Virus genome (UHGV): UHGV-0071249
DNA: 34,343 nucleotides
Origin: a virus
Strand: one strand, 5' to 3'
Shown here: positions 2,592-34,343 of the stretch, in pieces
Position numbering within the stretch: the first letter of the stretch is position 1
Layout of the letters: every line of letters starts with the position of its first letter
Made by a program: the position numbers and the translations under genes
Notes under the pieces: generated by a model
The model's input: the letters and a program-made list of their open reading frames with translations, nothing else
What the model was told of the DNA's origin: nothing
The model's database searches: none

Positions 2592-3083
2592 ATGAAAAAA
2601 ATAAATGACCTAAAAGGCCAGGTATATCTACACCTATATAAAGAAGCACTACAGAAATGGCATAGTATGCATTCAAGACTAAAACGCATTGGTTATCAAA
2701 ACACAACTATTTGTGATGAATGGTATACTTTCAGTAACTACTACAACTGGTACATAGAAAATAGTATTAGTGGTTGGGATGTAGATAAGGATATATTAGG
2801 AGCTAACCACTATTCACCAAACACTTGTATGTTCGTACCACACGAAGTAAATCAATTATTCAGAGGTGGTTACGGTAAACATAAGAAGGGAGTACAGAAG
2901 GTTTTCAATAGTTGGGTAGCTAAATCAACTTACAACGGTGTACAGGAGTATTACGGTACATTCAAAACAGAAGATGAAGCACACCAGGCATATCTTACAC
3001 ATCGCCGTATTTGTATAGTGAATCTAGCAACTAAGTATAGTAACTATCCAGTGCTTAGTATAGCACTACTAAACAGCAAGTAA
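2592..3083 (+). CDS. HNH_3-like / AP2-domain DNA-binding protein (homing-endonuclease-like, HNH probably degenerate)
   Basis: Segment DKDILGANHYSPNTCMFVPHEVNQ resembles the phage HNH_3 core but lacks the first catalytic His; C-terminal GVQKVFNSWVAKSTYNGVQEYYGTFKTEDEAHQAY matches the AP2 DNA-binding consensus. Confidence 0.5.
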   Translation: MKKINDLKGQVYLHLYKEALQKWHSMHSRLKRIGYQNTTICDEWYTFSNYYNWYIENSISGWDVDKDILGANHYSPNTCMFVPHEVNQLFRGGYGKHKKGVQKVFNSWVAKSTYNGVQEYYGTFKTEDEAHQAYLTHRRICIVNLATKYSNYPVLSIALLNSK

Positions 3084-3642: not shown

Positions 3643-3719
3643 TTAGCACATAATAGCCCAGACATATGTGCTAATTATGGGCTAATGGGTTAATGATGTA
3701 TGGGCTAATGGGTTAATGA
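3643..3719. repeat. Inverted repeat (TTAGCACATA / TATGTGCTAA) followed by two tandem copies of a 21-bp unit TATGGGCTAATGGGTTAATGA
   Basis: Inverted repeat at 3643-3652 / 3665-3674; tandem units at 3676-3696 and 3699-3719; the loop motif TAGCCCA is the reverse complement of TGGGCTA inside each unit. Confidence 0.6.
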
Positions 3720-3887: not shown

Positions 3888-3996
3888 TTCGCTTTGCTCG
3901 TTAGTCTCTGTAAAAACCAAATATAAGATCGTAACTTTGCGTTTTTCTCGCTATCGCGTCGAAAACTCGCAAGCGTTTTTCTCGCTTTGCTCGTAC
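3888..3996. repeat. Iteron-like direct repeats (GCGTTTTTCTCGCT twice; CGCTTTGCTCGT twice) in a non-coding region
   Basis: Direct repeats at about 3938/3973 and 3890/3983, read from the sequence; the overlapping minus-strand ORF 3857-4102 is judged spurious. Confidence 0.4.
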
Positions 3997-4251
3997 TTGT
4001 CAGTACTGTCAAAGTAACAAAACCCCAATAGCTACTACCAAAGTAATTAATCAAAGTATTCGTGAGTCGCCACGGAGTCACGCCCGAACGAGCCACCCGC
4101 ACACACCGGCCAAGTCGGATTATTGCTTAAGTAGTCATGGCAGTATAACGAATGCAACGGTACTTAATGAAATACTTGATAAGAAGGCCGATTTATATCA
4201 GAAACTGTTACCATATGCGGTATCGACATAATTCCTATGTACTACGATGAA

Positions 4252-4965
4252 CTATACATAAAATAATTCTTGGAATTTATATGTTCTAATTTTTTCATGG
4301 ATACATTTTCCTTGATAATAAGAGGAAAGAGCTTCGCCATAATTTACTTTGAAATGATGCCCAAAGAGTGCGAAATATCTTTCATCATTTATAAATTCAG
4401 ATAATGCATTTCTTAGGTTAAAAGTAGCATTCGATAAAGACATAATTGTCATTTGATAAGTATCAAGCAGTTGATATATTTCCTTTTCCTTTAGTATTGT
4501 CACATCCCAACGTTTTAATGATGAAAATTTAGAATGCGTATCCTGCAATCTCAATTTGTTATTTTCAATTAATACTCGTAACTCATCAAGTGATTTTATT
4601 ACTCTATTCCTGTCTGCTTGATTGTCAAAGATGTTAGATCGATAGTAGATTTCAGCTTCAGCTAAACTATCTATATAAGAGTTATGGGTGGCAGAAAAAG
4701 TATCAATTTCATTAAGTATAGCTTCAGCTTTTTCCAAACCTAATGTTCGTGTTTTTTCTGATAACCAATTTTTTGCATTAACAGCGGCATATAATGCCGC
4801 CCCGGCCATTATAGCATTACAAAATGTGGATACCCAATCGGAGACACTACCCCATTCAAACCCCTTACTGCCAGAAAATAAAAATTTAACAAGCACCAGT
4901 ATTGCTACCCATAAGAGTATAAGAACAGTAAAAATCAATGCGGTATTATATTGTTTAACTTTCAT
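4252..4965 (-). CDS. Two-TM membrane protein, paralogue A (candidate superinfection-exclusion or abortive-infection protein)
   Basis: N-terminal hydrophobic helix (ALIFTVLILLWVAILVLV), second helix AIMAGAALYAAVNAKNWLSEK, then about 170 aa with coiled-coil character; antisense to the phage operons; paralogous to 32551-33258. Confidence 0.65.
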   Translation of the reverse strand: MKVKQYNTALIFTVLILLWVAILVLVKFLFSGSKGFEWGSVSDWVSTFCNAIMAGAALYAAVNAKNWLSEKTRTLGLEKAEAILNEIDTFSATHNSYIDSLAEAEIYYRSNIFDNQADRNRVIKSLDELRVLIENNKLRLQDTHSKFSSLKRWDVTILKEKEIYQLLDTYQMTIMSLSNATFNLRNALSEFINDERYFALFGHHFKVNYGEALSSYYQGKCIHEKIRTYKFQELFYV

Positions 4966-5175
4966 TTGTTTAAACTTTCAATAAAGGATTTTTACGGGCA
5001 TTCTACCATTTTGTGATTGGATTAGTAACTGTTGTTTGAAGGTTATCATTATCATAACTTAACTTAGGGTTAAGTGCTGCTAAAATTAAATCAGAAATTT
5101 TATGCGGTTTTATTTCCCATTTATGTCAAAATTGATAGTAGTATGGGGAGTCTATACAAAAAGTAGGGATTACTG

Positions 5176-5622
5176 ATGGATACAGTAGAAGAACTTAATG
5201 GAACATACTTCTATGATGGTTCATCCAATCTTAGTGCAGGGGAGCTATTCTTCTGGATCATGGTTGATGAAACATTAGATCACTTTGGTATATCAGACAT
5301 AGCCGCAGTTGCAGGGATCTACCTTGGTTCGAATAATGTCACGGTAGCAGGTAAGCTGGCAGGGGCAACACCCGGCACATCCGTTGTGTCAATCTATTCC
5401 AGGGAATTATTCAGAGGACGAATGATGCCAGTACGAATGGCAACTTGGATTGGATTCCCGCCAAATGCAAAACGAGTTATGACACAGCGATTGGGTACAT
5501 TCGTTGGCAGGACTATTCCTCTTGTCGGTTGGATTGTACTCGCAGCAGACGTTTCTATCATCAGTTTCAAAGCAGTCAATAAGTACAATACAATCGCCCA
5601 TCCTTCAGATCGTCTATGGTAG
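5176..5622 (+). CDS. Small protein with two glycine-zipper-like hydrophobic segments (148 aa); candidate Hcp-associated cargo
   Basis: Segments DIAAVAGIYLGSNNVTVAGKLAGATPG and TIPLVGWIVLAADVSIISF; first gene of a tight three-gene set ending in Hcp. Confidence 0.55.
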   Translation: MDTVEELNGTYFYDGSSNLSAGELFFWIMVDETLDHFGISDIAAVAGIYLGSNNVTVAGKLAGATPGTSVVSIYSRELFRGRMMPVRMATWIGFPPNAKRVMTQRLGTFVGRTIPLVGWIVLAADVSIISFKAVNKYNTIAHPSDRLW

Positions 5623-5629
5623 GTACTGA

Positions 5630-5986
5630 ATGAACGATTCAGATAACATAGAGCAGCAGGTCATGAATTGGTATAACGAGAACTGGAATGGGCGTGTTTT
5701 TCCATTTTTCAGGAAGCCATCATTGACGCTGGAAACAAGCCTATCAACAGGCAAGTATCCTTGGGCAGATGAAGATGCGATAGAGATACTTGATGATTAC
5801 TTTGGGAAGTTCAATGTTGAGCGTAAAAATTTCACATTTGGCAAGTACTGGCCCAATGAAGAAGTAGTACTTCCATTGAATTTTTTACGATCAAAAGATA
5901 ATAAATGGGAATGGATTGAACCAGAACCATTAACACTCAAAATGCTTGTCGAATCAGCTAAGGCTGGTCGCTGGCTTTACGATTAA
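5630..5986 (+). CDS. Small acidic Trp-rich protein (118 aa); candidate immunity or adaptor protein
   Basis: Starts 7 bp after the previous stop; W-rich (NWYNENWNG, KYPWADED, KWEWIEPEP); no family assigned with confidence. Confidence 0.55.
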   Translation: MNDSDNIEQQVMNWYNENWNGRVFPFFRKPSLTLETSLSTGKYPWADEDAIEILDDYFGKFNVERKNFTFGKYWPNEEVVLPLNFLRSKDNKWEWIEPEPLTLKMLVESAKAGRWLYD

Positions 5987-5998
5987 AAGGAGTTTTCA

Positions 5999-6484
5999 AT
6001 GGCAATCCCCGCACACTTATGGCTTAAAGATGATGGTGGAGCATTAATTAAGGGATCATGCGATGTAATGGATCGAGAGGGAAGTGTGGAAATTATTGGT
6101 TTCGGTCATGGCCTACATATTCCTACCGATAATAATACTGGTAAAATTACTGGAACTCGAATCCATACACCGATGGTATTAGAAAAGGAATTTGATAGCT
6201 CTACACCGTATCTCTATAAAGCAGTTGCTACAGGGCAATCGCTTAAAAGTGCCGAAATTAAATGGTACAAGATTAATGATGCAGGCCAGGAAGTAGAGTA
6301 CTTCAATATGCTTCTTGAAGGTGTCAAAGTCGTTGCTGTAACCCCGATAATGTACAATACAAAGACCGTTGAAAAATGTAACCACATGGAGCGTGTAGAA
6401 TTACGCTACGAAAGAATTACATGGAAGTACTGTGACGGTAATATCCAGTATACTGATGCGTGGAATGAACGAGCGACAGCATAG
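5999..6484 (+). CDS. hcp: Hcp (TssD) family type VI secretion tube / effector-chaperone protein
   Basis: 161 aa; N-terminus MAIPAHLWLKDDGG...IKGS.DV.DREGS and later segments (TGK.TGTR.H.P, PYLYKAV.TGQ.LKSAE.KWY.INDAGQEVEYF, LRYE.ITW, WNER) match my recollection of enterobacterial Hcp1 sequences; perfect AAAAGGAG ribosome-binding site 6 nt upstream. Confidence 0.75.
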   Translation: MAIPAHLWLKDDGGALIKGSCDVMDREGSVEIIGFGHGLHIPTDNNTGKITGTRIHTPMVLEKEFDSSTPYLYKAVATGQSLKSAEIKWYKINDAGQEVEYFNMLLEGVKVVAVTPIMYNTKTVEKCNHMERVELRYERITWKYCDGNIQYTDAWNERATA

Positions 6485-6486
6485 TT

Positions 6487-6509
6487 AAAAGGGGCATGTA
6501 CCCCCTTAA
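6487..6509. terminator. Hairpin (AAGGGG-CATGTAC-CCCCTT) between the convergent hcp and 4-TM genes
   Basis: Stem-loop read from the sequence; TTTT follows 3 nt downstream on the plus strand; overlaps the stop codon of the minus-strand gene. Confidence 0.45.
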
Positions 6510-7195
6510 CTTTTATGGCTTTCGTATGTTGGCTCTCGAAATTTAAATATGTGATGTTTCTTACCCATCGAAATAAATTCCTGCGATACTGTTTTACGAC
6601 AAGAAAATACAGTAATAGGAACTGATAGAGAATAAATCACAGTGGAGAGTAATACTATGAGAGGGTAGTGAGAACTAATTAAAATAAGAGACGTAATGAA
6701 ACAAGCAAGCCATAGCATAATCATAAAAGCACTAAGGAATGTGTTTATATTAGAAACCGAGGGACGAAGGTCGTTTATGGTTTTATAGAAAAGCACTTTA
6801 TATAAATTCCCTGTAACATAATATTCTAATTTATCAATTACTAACTCCCAGTTTTCTTGCCAATATTTGCTACCGATATTCACATAATAGAAGCATATTG
6901 AAAATACGGTTCCAATTATTGATATGAATGGTGTATAGGTGATATATTCCGTATGTGTGAAAAGATAACCATAGGCAGCAGTTATAACTGTGAAAAAAGC
7001 AAAAAAATAAGTTGCTCGCTTCCAGTACAAATCAATCTCAAATTTTCTTATATCATGAGCTTTATCCAGTGCGGCTATTAGTTTTTTATGATCTAAAGAA
7101 TCTTCCATAATAATTGTACTGACACCCAAGAATTCTTGGAAAAATTCTTTATCCTCATCTTTTATTACAAATGGTTCTTTTTTTGTATTATCCAT
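6506..7195 (-). CDS. Integral membrane protein with about four TM helices (229 aa), function unknown; candidate immunity or defence effector
   Basis: Soluble N-terminal 60 aa, then hydrophobic helices (FFAFFTVITAAYGYLF; FISIIGTVFSICFYYV; FLSAFMIMLWLACFITSLILI; LIVLLSTVIYSLSVPITVF) with a YWQENWE linker; convergent with hcp. Confidence 0.6.
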   Translation of the reverse strand: MDNTKKEPFVIKDEDKEFFQEFLGVSTIIMEDSLDHKKLIAALDKAHDIRKFEIDLYWKRATYFFAFFTVITAAYGYLFTHTEYITYTPFISIIGTVFSICFYYVNIGSKYWQENWELVIDKLEYYVTGNLYKVLFYKTINDLRPSVSNINTFLSAFMIMLWLACFITSLILISSHYPLIVLLSTVIYSLSVPITVFSCRKTVSQEFISMGKKHHIFKFREPTYESHKS

Positions 7196-8164
7196 AATTT
7201 ATTCTTACAAGATAAAAGGCCAGTATACAATCAGATTTCACTCTCTGTATACTACGCGAAAGTACTCCCCCTTGCTAATGGGTAGGTTTGTTGGGTGTAA
7301 GGGGGTAGTACTCAAAACGGCAGTTCTTCTTGTCCACAAAATCAACCATCTTCATGAAGCCTTGAAATTTCCCTCACCAGATAAGTTAACCCTTCCAGTA
7401 CTGAAGCGATCGGGTACTCCATGATCAAGTAGAAGCAACCTCGCTGAACTGTACCGAATCAGTACTTCCTTTGTCCATTCTGGAAGAAAACACGATCACC
7501 AAATGCAAACTTGTCCAGTACTGAACCGTAGTAACAAACCCTGAATTCACGCTCGCCGTGGGTGAAGGTTTGTACCCCTCGGACGATTGCTGGATCGTAG
7601 CCATTTTTACTCATTTGATGCTCACCATAGGTGTAATGAATATGCATACAGCACGCCTATGTGTTTTTAAAAATCCAGCAAATCACAATCTATCGATAAA
7701 ACTGTTCAAAAATGCATTGAATGATCTATAAAAGTGATCAATATTGATGACTTACGGTCAAATGAGGTCATTAAATGAACATCCAGTACTGGGCTGTACC
7801 GATTACGACTCTTAATGGGCAGTTGCTCGGAGTGGAAATCCAGCCGCAGATAGAAATACACGGCTGTCGGCTCATTGCTGGGGATGTACTGAAGTGGCAA
7901 CTACACGTAACGGAGTGAAGTATTACCGGCCTCAGTTCCAGAGTGATTGCGGTCGCATCTATAATCCAATCTACCAGATGGACAATGGCAGTACTACGTG
8001 TCTAATACGCGAGGAAAGGATTCAAGAATGTATTAATATAGCTAAACAATTATTGAGGTCAAATCATTAATTGATTAAATATATTGGTCATGGTAAAAAT
8101 AATTGAATTACATATGATATCCTCATGCTACTGGTGCTAATAACATAGCATGAGGATATATACT

Positions 8165-9286
8165 TCAACGCACCATGGCTAATGTTCTGGAAATTCGCAT
8201 GATTTCTTTTTCAATATCATCTAAAACAGGTAGTGATTTTCTGCTTCGTTCAGCAATTTCTTGCAATATATATCTGTTCAAATAATTGTTTACATTTTTA
8301 GGATCAAGATTTTCAGGTGTGGGAACAACACAACATTGCCAATAAAAAATCTCATCTTCGAAATGAGTTAGCCATTTGGAGTGATATCTTTCTTTCGATT
8401 TTTTCTTATTAAGCACATAAATGCTGGCTGCAGCTATCACATCAGCAATTTGTATACCATGCGTGACTTTAGAATCAGAAAGGATTATGGGCTCAGATAG
8501 TTTGAATGTGATCGGGATTTTTTTATTATTAAAGGTCTCGAACACAATTTCATCATTACCTATCATCTCATTGAATGCGTCTTGTTGGGTAATTAATGGT
8601 TTTGAACTATCACATATAGCTCTCAATGTACCAAACTTACTACTCATATCGCATAAGAGATTATAAAGAGAAGTCGTTGTCAAATCTAACAACCATTTAT
8701 CAACCCCAGTGCCCTCGAGACCTTCATATTCCTCTTCAATTATTGAAATGTTATGCTTGGCGAAATCATGAATGTCCATCATAATTTCAGAGTTTTTAGT
8801 ACCAATAACTGGTTCGATAAAACTATTAACTAATATTTTACCTCGTGAAAAATCTTCAAATCGAGAATGCAATAGTTCAGAATACTCATCCTTAGCTATT
8901 AAAGAAAAATACATTATATTGGATATGAATAGGTGGAATTTAAGGTTGTAAAATATTGAGCTTTTAGCTGCTAATACTGGCTCGAAAATATATTCAAAGA
9001 ATTTTCCTGAAAGGGCATATTTCTTTTCGTTAACAACCACACGCATACGTCCACGGAAATGATTAAGTATCTCATCTACGGCTGGTTGTAATCTCTTGCT
9101 ATTAACGAGAGTGCTACCTTTTAGCTCTTCGGCTGCGATCGAGTACTTTTGTATTATGTAATCTACAAACTGTTTACTTTCCTCTTCATCAGTCACGACT
9201 GCAGCGTAACTAAAAAAAGGCTGATCTTTTGAAAGTAAGTTATTACCTGTAAACCCTGATTCGTCGAAGTAGACATTTTTTACCAA
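8165..9286 (-). CDS. DUF3800-like protein (373 aa), antisense cargo gene immediately upstream of the late operon
   Basis: N-terminal VYFDESG and C-terminal GIQIADVIA motifs, which I recall as the two signature motifs of DUF3800; TTG start with GAAGGA ribosome-binding site about 9 nt upstream. Confidence 0.6.
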   Translation of the reverse strand: MVKNVYFDESGFTGNNLLSKDQPFFSYAAVVTDEEESKQFVDYIIQKYSIAAEELKGSTLVNSKRLQPAVDEILNHFRGRMRVVVNEKKYALSGKFFEYIFEPVLAAKSSIFYNLKFHLFISNIMYFSLIAKDEYSELLHSRFEDFSRGKILVNSFIEPVIGTKNSEIMMDIHDFAKHNISIIEEEYEGLEGTGVDKWLLDLTTTSLYNLLCDMSSKFGTLRAICDSSKPLITQQDAFNEMIGNDEIVFETFNNKKIPITFKLSEPIILSDSKVTHGIQIADVIAAASIYVLNKKKSKERYHSKWLTHFEDEIFYWQCCVVPTPENLDPKNVNNYLNRYILQEIAERSRKSLPVLDDIEKEIMRISRTLAMVR

Positions 9287-30385: not shown

Positions 30386-30853
30386 TTACTTCCAGTTTAA
30401 TTGATTATTCATATCATCTACACGTGATTTTGTCTGCTTATACCATAGTGAATCTATAGATTCCCTACGCATACCAATGCGATCACCATTCTTTGCAGCC
30501 GCAAGTAATTTTTTGAATTTACTTGTACCCGCCAATCCCAATTGAAATATCATAATAATAAGATAATCTTCAATGTCTTTTGGAAGTGTACCTAGATTAA
30601 GTGTACGTAGTCCTGCTTTTGCCTTTTCGATATCATGAGCTAATAGTATATCTGCCTCAATTGGTGTAATCCCATTACTGAAATCTTCACCTTTCTGTAC
30701 TAGGTGTCCTGCCCCAACAGTGAGATAGCCCAAGCTATCTTTATATGGGTAATATTTCCCTTGTCGATAATAACCTTTATATGTTTGGTATAGTTGATCG
30801 CCTTCATATTTCCAAAGGCGTGTTTTAATGTCTGCCATTACTAAATACTCCAT
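30386..30853 (-). CDS. Endolysin, T4-type lysozyme (glycoside hydrolase family 24)
   Basis: Motifs YEGD...YKDSLGYLTVGAGHL, IMIFQLGLAGTSKFKKLLAAAKNGD and WYKQTKSRVDDM parallel the T4 lysozyme catalytic and C-terminal regions. Confidence 0.8.
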   Translation of the reverse strand: MEYLVMADIKTRLWKYEGDQLYQTYKGYYRQGKYYPYKDSLGYLTVGAGHLVQKGEDFSNGITPIEADILLAHDIEKAKAGLRTLNLGTLPKDIEDYLIIMIFQLGLAGTSKFKKLLAAAKNGDRIGMRRESIDSLWYKQTKSRVDDMNNQLNWK

Positions 30854-30855
30854 AA

Positions 30856-31308
<453 letters not shown>

Positions 31309-32521: not shown

Positions 32522-32523
32522 CG

Positions 32524-32549
32524 GAAGCCCCATAACGGGGCTTTTTTTT
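32524..32549 (+). terminator. Rho-independent terminator (GAAGCCCC-ATAAC-GGGGCTT followed by T8)
   Basis: Classic GC-rich stem plus eight-T run, read directly; ends the plus-strand late/lysis operon. Confidence 0.75.
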
Positions 32550-32550
32550 C

Positions 32551-33258
32551 TTATTTGCTATCAATATTAGTTTGATTAGCTACTACAAATAGGCTTTTCC
32601 ATGAAGTCAACCATTCAAATGGGAGAATTTGAGTTAAAGCAAAATTACTCTTAAAGGAAATATTATGGAATTCCCAGTTTTTCTTACGTGCCATACCACT
32701 AACATCTTCGCAGATTTTTATCATGTCATGGCTAGTTACTGTGAAAACATTTAAATGTGCTATGCTTTTTTTTAACATGTCTTTTTTATCTGGATGAACA
32801 GACATATTCCAAACGCGAAGAATATCATAGTGAGACTTTAATTTTAACATGTGGTCTCTATAATCTGCGTGTAATTCCCAAGCCTTATTCAAAAGTTTTT
32901 CATAATTCAGATCGCCTGGGTTAATATTTTTGTTTTCATTGTAATAATATAACTGTGAAATGTTTAAATGTAACAGTTCCGCTTTCAATTTTGCTTCATG
33001 GAATAGTGTAATGTACTGGTTTGCTTGTTCAAAACCTTTCTCATTAATTTTATCAGCATACCAATCCTTCACTTTAAAGATTGTATATATTGCTGCTATA
33101 GCCATCACGGTATCCATGATGGCCGATGTGGTTGAGCTATCATAACCATGAAAAAAAAGTACATCAGCATAAATTGGGATTAATACTCCAACAGCAATAC
33201 ATATAATATGTGATAATGTAATACCATTGAGAAAATGTACTATTTTATTCTTCTTCAC
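32551..33258 (-). CDS. Two-TM membrane protein, paralogue B, at the right prophage junction
   Basis: Same architecture as 4252-4965, with a shared second-helix motif (TVMAIAAIYTIFKVKDWYADK versus AIMAGAALYAAVNAKNWLSEK); GTG start with GGAG ribosome-binding site lying inside the 3' end of the host gene. Confidence 0.65.
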   Translation of the reverse strand: MKKNKIVHFLNGITLSHIICIAVGVLIPIYADVLFFHGYDSSTTSAIMDTVMAIAAIYTIFKVKDWYADKINEKGFEQANQYITLFHEAKLKAELLHLNISQLYYYNENKNINPGDLNYEKLLNKAWELHADYRDHMLKLKSHYDILRVWNMSVHPDKKDMLKKSIAHLNVFTVTSHDMIKICEDVSGMARKKNWEFHNISFKSNFALTQILPFEWLTSWKSLFVVANQTNIDSK

Positions 33259-33285
33259 TTCGAATAAACTCCGACTATAGGTTAA

Positions 33286-34128
33286 TTAAACCAGTTCTTG
33301 TGTTATTACTGTTTCGAAGTAATGATTTACTACATCAGCTATACCAGTTTCAGTATTGTTACCTATTACTAAATCAGCACAGGCTTTTACTTCATCAACC
33401 GCGTTACCCATAGCAACACCCAAGCCAGCATTTTTCAACATGCTTAGATCGTTGTAATTATCACCAAAGGCTATTACCTGGCTCATAGATAAACCTTGTG
33501 ATTCTACCCATTGTGCCAGGCGTTTACCCTTACTGTTTCCGGCTTGTGCTATGTCTACTTGATCGTGCCAAGACCATTCGCAAGCAAGGCCAAGCTCACG
33601 CTCTACTATCTGACCAAAGCTATGTAGTTTTTCAGTATCAGAATCAGTAAGGGCGAATTTCCAGATAGCATCAACATTTTGCGATGCTTCACTAAGAGAG
33701 GGTACTTGTTTGAAGATTGGACGTTGTGACTCTGGAAGAGACTTAGCCCAATTTTCTGTACGGATAATATGCCCCGTTGGTTCTTGATAGAACATGACAT
33801 CATCGGCATACATCAGACTATGAACATTGTAACTATCAAGTAGGTTCACTAATTGAATAGCTTGTTCTGGTTGTAATGGGTCTGAGGCAATAACTCTTTT
33901 TTCGGCGTAATCGTACAATAAAGCACCATTACAACATATAGCTGGTGTATTAAGTTCTAATGCCTGATAAAAAGGATGGATGGCTACAAAGTGCCGTCCG
34001 GTAACTATGACAACCTTTGCCCCTGATTTACGGGCATTCTGTAGGGCAGATAGTGAGGCTGGTAAGATAGTTTTTTCTGGCGTCAATAAAGTGCCGTCCA
34101 GATCAAGGGCGATTACCTGATAGTTCAT
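33286..34128 (-). CDS. Host Cof-type HAD-superfamily (HAD-IIB) sugar/phosphate phosphatase
   Basis: MNYQVIALDLDGTLL (DxDGT motif I), VIVTGRH, and C-terminal GDNYNDLSMLKNAGLGVAMGNA (motif IV); AGGTGA ribosome-binding site before ATG 34128; more G+C-rich than the prophage. Confidence 0.8.
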   Translation of the reverse strand: MNYQVIALDLDGTLLTPEKTILPASLSALQNARKSGAKVVIVTGRHFVAIHPFYQALELNTPAICCNGALLYDYAEKRVIASDPLQPEQAIQLVNLLDSYNVHSLMYADDVMFYQEPTGHIIRTENWAKSLPESQRPIFKQVPSLSEASQNVDAIWKFALTDSDTEKLHSFGQIVERELGLACEWSWHDQVDIAQAGNSKGKRLAQWVESQGLSMSQVIAFGDNYNDLSMLKNAGLGVAMGNAVDEVKACADLVIGNNTETGIADVVNHYFETVITQELV

Positions 34129-34343
34129 GTAGTGATTCACCTGATTTTGGTATGTAGTTTCCTCGATAGTACACCGCTTTGCGGCTACGACGAAACAAGG
34201 TGAAGAGTCTTGTTGAGCACTGGAACAGCGTTGGATACTGGCGTATTGCCTTGGATGGGCGTAAATATTGTAATTAGCAATACACACTCAAATAGGTGCC
34301 ATTACAGCAAATAGCAGGTGTATCCAGCGCCAGCGCCTGATAA

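Follow-up and report, generated by a model that had tools for sequence, protein, structure and literature searches.

Two minus-strand genes of the virus genome UHGV-0071249, designated A and B here, encode distantly related members of one family of small proteins that is previously unnamed and, judged from sequence, predicted to be located in the inner membrane. The family consists of accessory ('moron') proteins of a single prophage lineage of the Enterobacterales. Their function is read tentatively as exclusion of infecting phages, expressed from the lysogen. The term window refers throughout to the whole analysed stretch of 34,343 nt, which is essentially one prophage of ~34 kb. Its GC content is 37%, well below the ~50% that is typical of the Escherichia coli chromosome. 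In the window, gene A is located in a cargo island and gene B at the right junction, adjoining the holin gene, and both are antisense to the structural and lysis genes.

Gene A (open reading frame A), 4252-4965, minus strand: ATG start, 237 amino acids (aa), A-type with the loop motif FEWGSVSDW, family hidden Markov model (HMM) match at E=5e-57
Gene B (open reading frame B), 32551-33258, minus strand: GTG start, 235 aa, B-type with the loop HGYDSSTTSA, family HMM match at E=2e-39

Homology, layout and diversity of the family

Two open reading frames of about 235 aa with a shared motif in their second membrane helix had been described in the original prediction, and both are present exactly where it placed them. 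The motif is AIMAGAALYAAVNAKNW in A (residues 51-67) and TVMAIAAIYTIFKVKDW in B (residues 50-66). Pairwise alignment of the two proteins by BLASTP gives 24% identity over 139 aa (E=1e-6). Comparison by hhalign of an A-type alignment of 23 sequences with a B-type alignment of 28 sequences gives a probability of 99.25% (E=5.8e-20) over 191 columns, from the second transmembrane helix (TM2) to the C-terminus. This span indicates that A and B are homologous along nearly their full length, beyond the membrane motif alone, and the paralogy that had been suggested for them is thereby borne out. On these alignments the two are true homologues, distantly related and of the same unnamed family. They are ancient paralogs from two subfamilies, each of which has positional counterparts in related prophages, and did not arise by recent duplication within this prophage.

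Searches with word-indexed methods returned about 30 relatives per protein, all labelled 'hypothetical protein'. B itself is WP_137464403.1 of E. coli G3/10, annotated as a hypothetical protein, and its homologues in the protein search are records P0033-P0061; a protein 100% identical to A is present on 144 contigs. Searched exhaustively with a HMMER profile, a set of 1.84 billion representatives yielded 511 clusters (50% identity) at E<=1e-3, 228 of them at E<=1e-10, and an indexed protein search with a broad alignment added almost no further members. All members with a named source are from the Enterobacterales (Escherichia, Klebsiella, Enterobacter, Kosakonia, Yokenella, Cronobacter, Raoultella, Serratia, Erwinia, Yersinia and Pectobacterium), except for one record labelled Pseudomonas cerasi. 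Neither A nor B has a match above noise in Pfam, NCBIfam, PADLOC or PHROGs, and no Pfam or PADLOC match recurs among 126 diverse family members scanned singly. The weak PHROG matches, phrog_24307 and phrog_15250, are both without an assigned function, so the earlier statement that the proteins could not be placed in a named family still holds. Sequence-profile matches in the PDB were confined to designed coiled coils and helical bundles, and were rejected as a compositional effect.

The predicted layout of both proteins, with ~170 aa of helical domain after a membrane hairpin, agrees with what had been proposed. It was obtained from hydropathy and from AlphaFold2 models, run with a 59-sequence alignment.

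A, first transmembrane helix (TM1), residues 8-30, 4876-4944, minus strand: strongly hydrophobic, Kyte-Doolittle peak 3.0, AlphaFold helix 2-30
A, conserved core, 4765-4875, minus strand: acidic loop SGSKGFEWGSVSD (residues 31-43) and TM2 (W44-W67), the region where the family alignment has its lowest entropy
A, C-terminal four-helix bundle, residues 68-237, 4255-4764, minus strand: hypervariable across the family
B, TM1, about residues 13-36, 33151-33222, minus strand: Kyte-Doolittle peak 2.5, AlphaFold helix 15-35
B, TM2, about residues 44-66, 33061-33129, minus strand: conserved D49 and W66, from hydropathy, AlphaFold and the B-type alignment
B, C-terminal helical bundle, residues 67-235, 32554-33060, minus strand: AlphaFold model

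TM1 is strongly hydrophobic in both proteins (the peaks above are for a 19-residue window), and TM2 is weaker and rich in Ala and Gly, at ~1.45-1.55. The models have a pTM (predicted template modelling score) of 0.69 and a pLDDT (predicted local distance difference test) of 85.4 for A and 85.1 for B. Their order is a TM1 helix, a loop of ~10 residues, and a helix of ~70 residues that starts as TM2 and extends into the four-helix bundle; in A the helices after TM1 are 41-110, 116-153, 160-187 and 195-227. TM2 of A is flanked by W44 and W67 and has small-xxx-small spacings at A56-A60-A64 and A57-A61.

Among the 126 members TM2 is almost free of charge, and the mean numbers of K+R and D+E are 1.9 and 0.5 before TM1, 0.7 and 2.1 in the loop, and 3.7 and 2.6 after TM2. 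This distribution fits a topology in which the N-terminus is inside, the loop outside and the C-terminus inside. There are also natural variants without TM1, which begin at 'MEWGS' or 'MDWGN' just before TM2; the open reading frame at 8503-9066 of locus L033 leaves no room for a TM1. The bundle of such variants can only be cytoplasmic, and the same location should apply to its homologous counterpart in the two-TM forms. From the charge distribution and these variants together, a cytoplasmic bundle is predicted for the family. Some arrays mix one or two TM1-less isoforms with a full two-TM member (L033 8503-10666, L039, L046 and L056-L058).

The family signature consists, from the N-terminus, of a variable TM1, the loop (F)EWGSxSDW(V/I)S in the A-type or HGYDSSTxSA in the B-type, TM2 with xxNxxMAGAAVYAAxNAKxW, and then GFxxAE. 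W67 (A numbering) is invariant in the 59-sequence alignments, and A57, A60 and W67 are conserved in at least 90% of the 126 members. The B-type proteins conserve the polar residues S16, H17, D32 and D49, invariant or nearly so in the B-type alignment, in or next to the membrane helices. The bundle has almost no conserved positions, and close to the C-terminus there is a conserved Phe. At A positions 41-70 the column entropy is 1.8-2.2 bits, in TM1 ~2.5 bits and over most of 81-230 3.2-3.7 bits. On average, pairs of members are 36% identical in the core and 13% in the bundle. A core identity of at least 60% is reached by 238 pairs, and 134 of these have less than 20% identity in the bundle.

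The diversifying selection that had been suggested is not demonstrated by this pattern. For 21 pairs with 60-97% identity, the ratio of nonsynonymous to synonymous divergence (dN/dS, Nei-Gojobori) is between 0.03 and 0.81, always below 1, and for A against its orthologues it is ~0.13-0.16 in both halves of the gene. Some pairs have a bundle value of 0.6-0.8, which exceeds that of their core. Values below 1 throughout indicate that both halves are under purifying selection, and gene-wide positive selection is ruled out for the available pairs. By this measure A and B are real genes under constraint. The two halves of one gene pair can differ 3-5-fold in dS (L024/L025, 0.50 and 0.14; L032/L034, 0.28 and 1.48), which points to recombination within the gene that has joined conserved hairpins to different bundles. 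The diversity of the family is better explained by old divergence and such recombination.

Position in the prophage and expression signals

The prophage is integrated in the E. coli gene ybhA via a large serine recombinase (61-1914). Integration has left a truncated 5' fragment of the host gene (within 33286-34343), and a phosphatase gene of the phage itself adjoins the junction, apparently replacing the function of the disrupted ybhA. The same arrangement of phosphatase and B is found in the Enterobacter relatives L013-L015.

Pyridoxal phosphatase, 33286-34128, minus strand: phage-borne ybhA replacement, complete, from the annotation

Every context examined, for both subfamilies, is in one prophage type or its remnants, characterised by a serine recombinase, a GpA-type terminase, Phage_portal_2 and a protease-capsid fusion. 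The association with prophages that had been expected of the homologues therefore holds. These contexts are in E. coli, Enterobacter, Pectobacterium and Raoultella, together with 35 viral contigs of IMG/VR. There was no family match in plasmids, and none in the 50,697 deposited phage genomes of INPHARED, by DNA or by tblastn.

A-type genes are always in the cargo slot, with the conserved early genes on one side and terS on the other. In 39 non-redundant loci this slot holds 1-4 tandem copies, and 73 of the 73 copies are antisense to terS, although these loci were retrieved through the family itself. A second sample was drawn through terS alone and gave 33 elements in which the slot was covered. 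Here 25 (76%) carry 1-3 copies, all antisense, and 8 carry none, so the family is frequent but accessory. Presence in some relatives and absence from others at a fixed insertion point is what defines a moron. As in the morons of HK97 and lambda and the defence hotspots of P2 and P4, there is an optional gene, a promoter-like element, a putative terminator (after B), a fixed position and changing cargo. Morons are a class rather than a homologous family, and the present low-GC lineage with its serine recombinase is without a match in INPHARED.

B-type genes occupy the opposite end of the prophage, where the lysis cassette and the phosphatase gene flank them (the window, L001, L008 and L013-L015). 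The description of both proteins as antisense to the phage operons is correct for A and B in the window and for all copies in the terS slot. It fails for L043 and L070, where the right-end copy is immediately downstream of the holin gene and co-directional with it, so that the strict antisense rule is limited to the terS-proximal slot. A decayed copy of the prophage in E. coli G3/10 (L001, NZ_CP060075.1 3420397-3436581) keeps B and has no A. It has lost the structural genes between the terminase and the tail tip at an IS3 element and has an IS1 element in the place of A; B, the lysis genes, the 8xMP gene, the Hcp cassette and the DUF3800 gene are retained.

The sites that may control expression of A and B in the window are as follows.

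Extended -10-like element TGGTAGAAT, 5000-5008, minus strand: first base 43 nt upstream of the ATG of A
Ribosome-binding site GGAG, 33269-33272, minus strand: 10 nt before the GTG of B
GC-rich hairpin terminator, 32523-32545, no strand assigned: within the 29 nt that separate the convergent holin and B genes

The upstream regions of the family genes are otherwise unrelated, yet they have in common TGGTA[AG]A[AG]T, an extended -10-like sequence located 38-59 nt before the start codons. There are 45 hits in 45 loci against 1.9 expected, an enrichment that is overstated to some degree because some of the motif-bearing loci are duplicates. TGGTAAA[AG]T also precedes other antisense cargo genes (L008-L010 at position 7408, L027 at 1254 and L028 at 4879), one of which encodes 183 aa and heads a three-gene operon with two family members. 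The motif may thus be a general promoter or regulatory site for the cargo of this lineage. A sequence scan saw no clear terminator after A on its own strand.

Only 27 nt lie between the stop codon of the phosphatase gene and the start of B, with no terminator-like site among them, so the two genes are probably one operon and probably co-transcribed. The phosphatase gene in turn lies downstream of the truncated host ybhA fragment, which makes read-through from the host ybhA promoter plausible. Expression of both A and B in the lysogen is proposed.

Candidate functions

The favoured reading, held tentatively and at somewhat less than even chance, is phage exclusion of the abortive-infection type expressed from the lysogen, in which a variable cytoplasmic sensor would be joined to a conserved membrane effector. 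The fixed slot, the accessory presence, the antisense orientation with a sigma-70-type motif, the changing cargo that includes a candidate defence system, the arrays of paralogs and the pattern of hairpin and bundle all fit such a function. Since a cytoplasmic location is predicted for the variable part and conservation is found in the membrane part, the logic of abortive infection is favoured. The cargo of the slot includes DUF3800, 8xMP, Hcp/DUF1493/DUF8209, EAL, HNH and helicase-like genes, and in the Enterobacter locus L011 it includes the PADLOC candidate defence system PDC-M45.

Under this reading, A would be transcribed from the resident prophage by its own extended -10 promoter, and B would be read through from the host ybhA promoter along with the ybhA replacement gene. 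The hairpin is predicted to have both termini inside, with a short acidic loop in the periplasm and a second helix that is rich in Ala and Gly and has Trp at its borders. In the cytoplasm, a cue from the infecting phage would be recognised by the variable bundle, and the conserved hairpin would then oligomerise, perturbing or permeabilising the inner membrane. Tandem paralogs would supply different specificities. A more specific version is judged unlikely, namely a membrane immune receptor made of a single polypeptide. In it, an Ala/Gly-zipper hairpin would be a pore-forming or depolarising effector and the bundle a swappable phage sensor, with cassette exchange within the gene and tandem repertoires in a dedicated prophage slot; TM1-less isoforms, 8xMP or both would be built-in regulators, comparable to holin and antiholin or SieB and Esc.

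The comparison with SieB made in the original prediction survives as a loose analogy of layout and not as homology. SieB of lambda and P22 (PF14163) acts by abortive exclusion. Like A and B it is a small prophage protein, antisense to a neighbouring phage gene, with N-terminal hydrophobic helices and a soluble C-terminal part, a likeness that is of layout only and is predicted, from hydropathy for lambda SieB and from hydropathy and AlphaFold for A and B. It differs in having 184 aa and a different genomic slot, in not occurring in tandem arrays, and in having no detectable homology. PF14163 has no match to A or B at E<=1 and none among the 126 members at E<=0.1, whereas lambda SieB, as a positive control, matches it at 1e-29; hhalign of the family alignment against lambda SieB gives a probability of 0.1%. 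A short membrane hairpin as a proposed killing or depolarising module, with a cytoplasmic trigger, is also found in Cap14 and Cap15 of the cyclic-oligonucleotide-based antiphage signalling system (CBASS), PycTM of the pyrimidine cyclase system for antiphage resistance (Pycsar), the 2TM protein of retron Ec48 and RexB of lambda. All of these rely for their activation on separate sensor proteins or on nucleotide signals. In A and B, the putative sensor and effector are in one polypeptide, and there is no cyclase, reverse transcriptase or RexA-like partner.

Several results weigh against exclusion as the function. No homology link to a known defence or exclusion protein was found through PADLOC, Pfam, NCBIfam or the PDB. 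PADLOC-DB v2, which includes the 2TM, SLATT and PycTM effectors, has nothing for A or B better than E=0.015 and only single, weak, non-recurring matches among the 126 members, and the cargo island of the window itself has no PADLOC match. The four-helix bundle is a generic fold, and the hydrophobicity of TM2 is only moderate. Generic promoter scans gave local matches to the consensus only, not enriched over shuffled sequence. The positional evidence comes largely from loci retrieved through the family itself, some of them duplicates, and in L043 and L070 the orientation of the right-end copy makes late expression possible.

Superinfection exclusion without suicide, through a block to genome entry at the inner membrane like that of T4 Imm, P22 SieA or HK97 gp15, for example by occupying or altering a host component for DNA translocation, is an unlikely explanation. 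It would share with the favoured reading the predicted inner-membrane location, the lysogen-type orientation, the promoter-like motif and the accessory status. Conservation is highest in the short periplasmic loop (FEWGSxSDW), for which a conserved protein of the host could be the docking site. However, the hypervariability is in the predicted cytoplasmic bundle and not in the loop or the membrane part, which is the opposite of what specificity at the entry step would require, and there is no homology to Imm, SieA or gp15-type families in Pfam or PHROGs.

Less probable again is another role in lysogenic conversion or host physiology, without any part in defence against phages or toxins, such as that of a sensor or adaptor which is built as a membrane-anchored four-helix bundle and modulates a membrane complex of the host. 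In structure the bundle comes closest to the ligand-binding four-helix bundles of chemoreceptors and sensor kinases; the best Foldseek matches of the B bundle in the PDB are chemoreceptor four-helix-bundle domains, none of them significant. B is probably co-transcribed with a metabolic pyridoxal phosphatase, and there is EAL-domain signalling cargo in the same slot in 13 loci. These fold matches are generic. Identity to the bundles of Tar, Tsr and PcaY (4HB_MCP) is 6-14%, the Foldseek E-value is >0.04, and designed bundles score equally. Although the up-down four-helix fold is that of 4HB_MCP, the position is not: the chemoreceptor bundle is periplasmic and flanked by TM1 and TM2, with HAMP and signalling domains after it, whereas that of A and B comes after TM2, is predicted to be cytoplasmic and ends the protein with no output domain. 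The Pfam models 4HB_MCP, HAMP and MCPsignal have no match in A, B or the 126 members. Hypervariability and arrays of paralogs better fit a protein that recognises fast-evolving targets.

A role in the life cycle of the phage itself is improbable, whether in lysis timing (as an antiholin, holin modulator or holin-like toxin) or as a membrane scaffold with the following protein of the cargo island.

8xMP/RipA-family membrane protein, 6506-7195, minus strand: PF24838 at 4e-29

B abuts a three-TM holin gene, and in L043 and L070 the right-end copy has the same strand as the holin. TM2 is rich in Ala and Gly like the helices of holins, and Hol_Tox is the commonest Pfam near-match, in 4 of the 126 members at E>=0.023, which is not significant. 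The 8xMP gene is a recurrent co-oriented neighbour of family genes, adjacent or overlapping (L026, L036, L040, L051, L092, L104 and L107), and a natural fusion of the two exists in Serratia plymuthica (P0085, WP_212559562.1, 461 aa). In the window the 8xMP gene and A have the Hcp cassette between them. The two families are not homologous: A and B have no match to PF24838 or the NCBIfam RipA model, hhalign gives 0.1%, and 8xMP/RipA proteins have the reverse layout, with a soluble N-terminal part and C-terminal membrane helices. Membership of a holin family is likewise rejected, there being no significant match to one; within the window, A lies at a distance from the lysis cassette, and B is convergent with the holin gene, with a terminator between the two. 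A life-cycle role is further opposed by the 8 of 33 related elements without the family, by a copy number of 1-4 with unrelated bundles, and by the antisense orientation of all terS-proximal copies to the late operon, with a sigma-70-type motif.

The least probable of the explanations considered is immunity to, or protection against, the toxins of other bacteria, such as effectors of the type VI secretion system (T6SS) or pore-forming bacteriocins. Orphan immunity islands typically contain divergent paralogs in tandem, and the family is organised in this way. The slot also carries T6SS-related cargo (Hcp/DUF1493/DUF8209 beside A, related genes in L021, L024 and L045, and Tlde1 in L011). Most family loci, however, have no T6SS-related neighbour and no toxin partner is consistently adjacent, and a variable domain that is predicted to be cytoplasmic and tethered to the membrane would be unusual against toxins that act on the envelope.

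The literature on 8xMP/RipA, prophage four-helix-bundle exclusion proteins, ybhA prophages and DUF3800 yielded nothing relevant.

Neighbouring features and significance

The T6SS-related cassette of the cargo island (5176-6484, plus strand) is divergent from A and consists of a gene of the STM2901/DUF8209 family, DUF1493 and Hcp. In L021, L024 and L045 it is DUF1493/DUF8209 that lies beside family genes, with Hcp also in L024, and in L011 the slot holds a gene with a Tlde1 domain. The antisense cargo gene adjoining terS (8165-9286, minus strand) encodes a DUF3800 protein of 373 aa, which belongs to the function-unassigned phrog_12991, recurs in 7 or more related loci and is without a PADLOC match.

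Downstream of A is a non-coding stretch of ~600 nt with a perfect 21-nt direct repeat, TATGGGCTAATGGGTTAATGA, in two copies at a spacing of 23 nt. The repeat regions are 3676-3719 and 3889-4005, and repeated GCGTTTTTCTCGCT and TCGCTTTGCTCG motifs are present in the same stretch; these repeats could be protein-binding sites. Rfam and transfer RNA scans of the window were empty.

The serine recombinase gene is separated from the cargo island by 4 kb without recognisable genes for a CI-type repressor or for replication, and a conserved early gene (2592-3083) is HNH-endonuclease-like. Among the late genes, the phage lysozyme gene (30386-30853) is on the minus strand, opposite to those around it, and is followed by a GIY-YIG/homing-endonuclease-like open reading frame (30880-31308, plus strand). 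This inverted arrangement is kept in relatives.

If the exclusion reading is true, the family would add a compact system of a single gene to the catalogue of defences, and the slot would be a second architecture for a cargo hotspot in enterobacterial prophages, comparable to those of P2 and P4. The slot is easily recognised from terS, the early genes and the diagnostic promoter-like motif, and could be mined for further cargo. The shared hairpins on unrelated bundles are ready-made domain swaps with which the coupling of effector and sensor could be mapped. At least 511 clusters (50% identity) are currently annotated only as hypothetical proteins, and even if these are unrelated to defence, they represent a still unexplained, abundant and constrained family of prophage membrane proteins.

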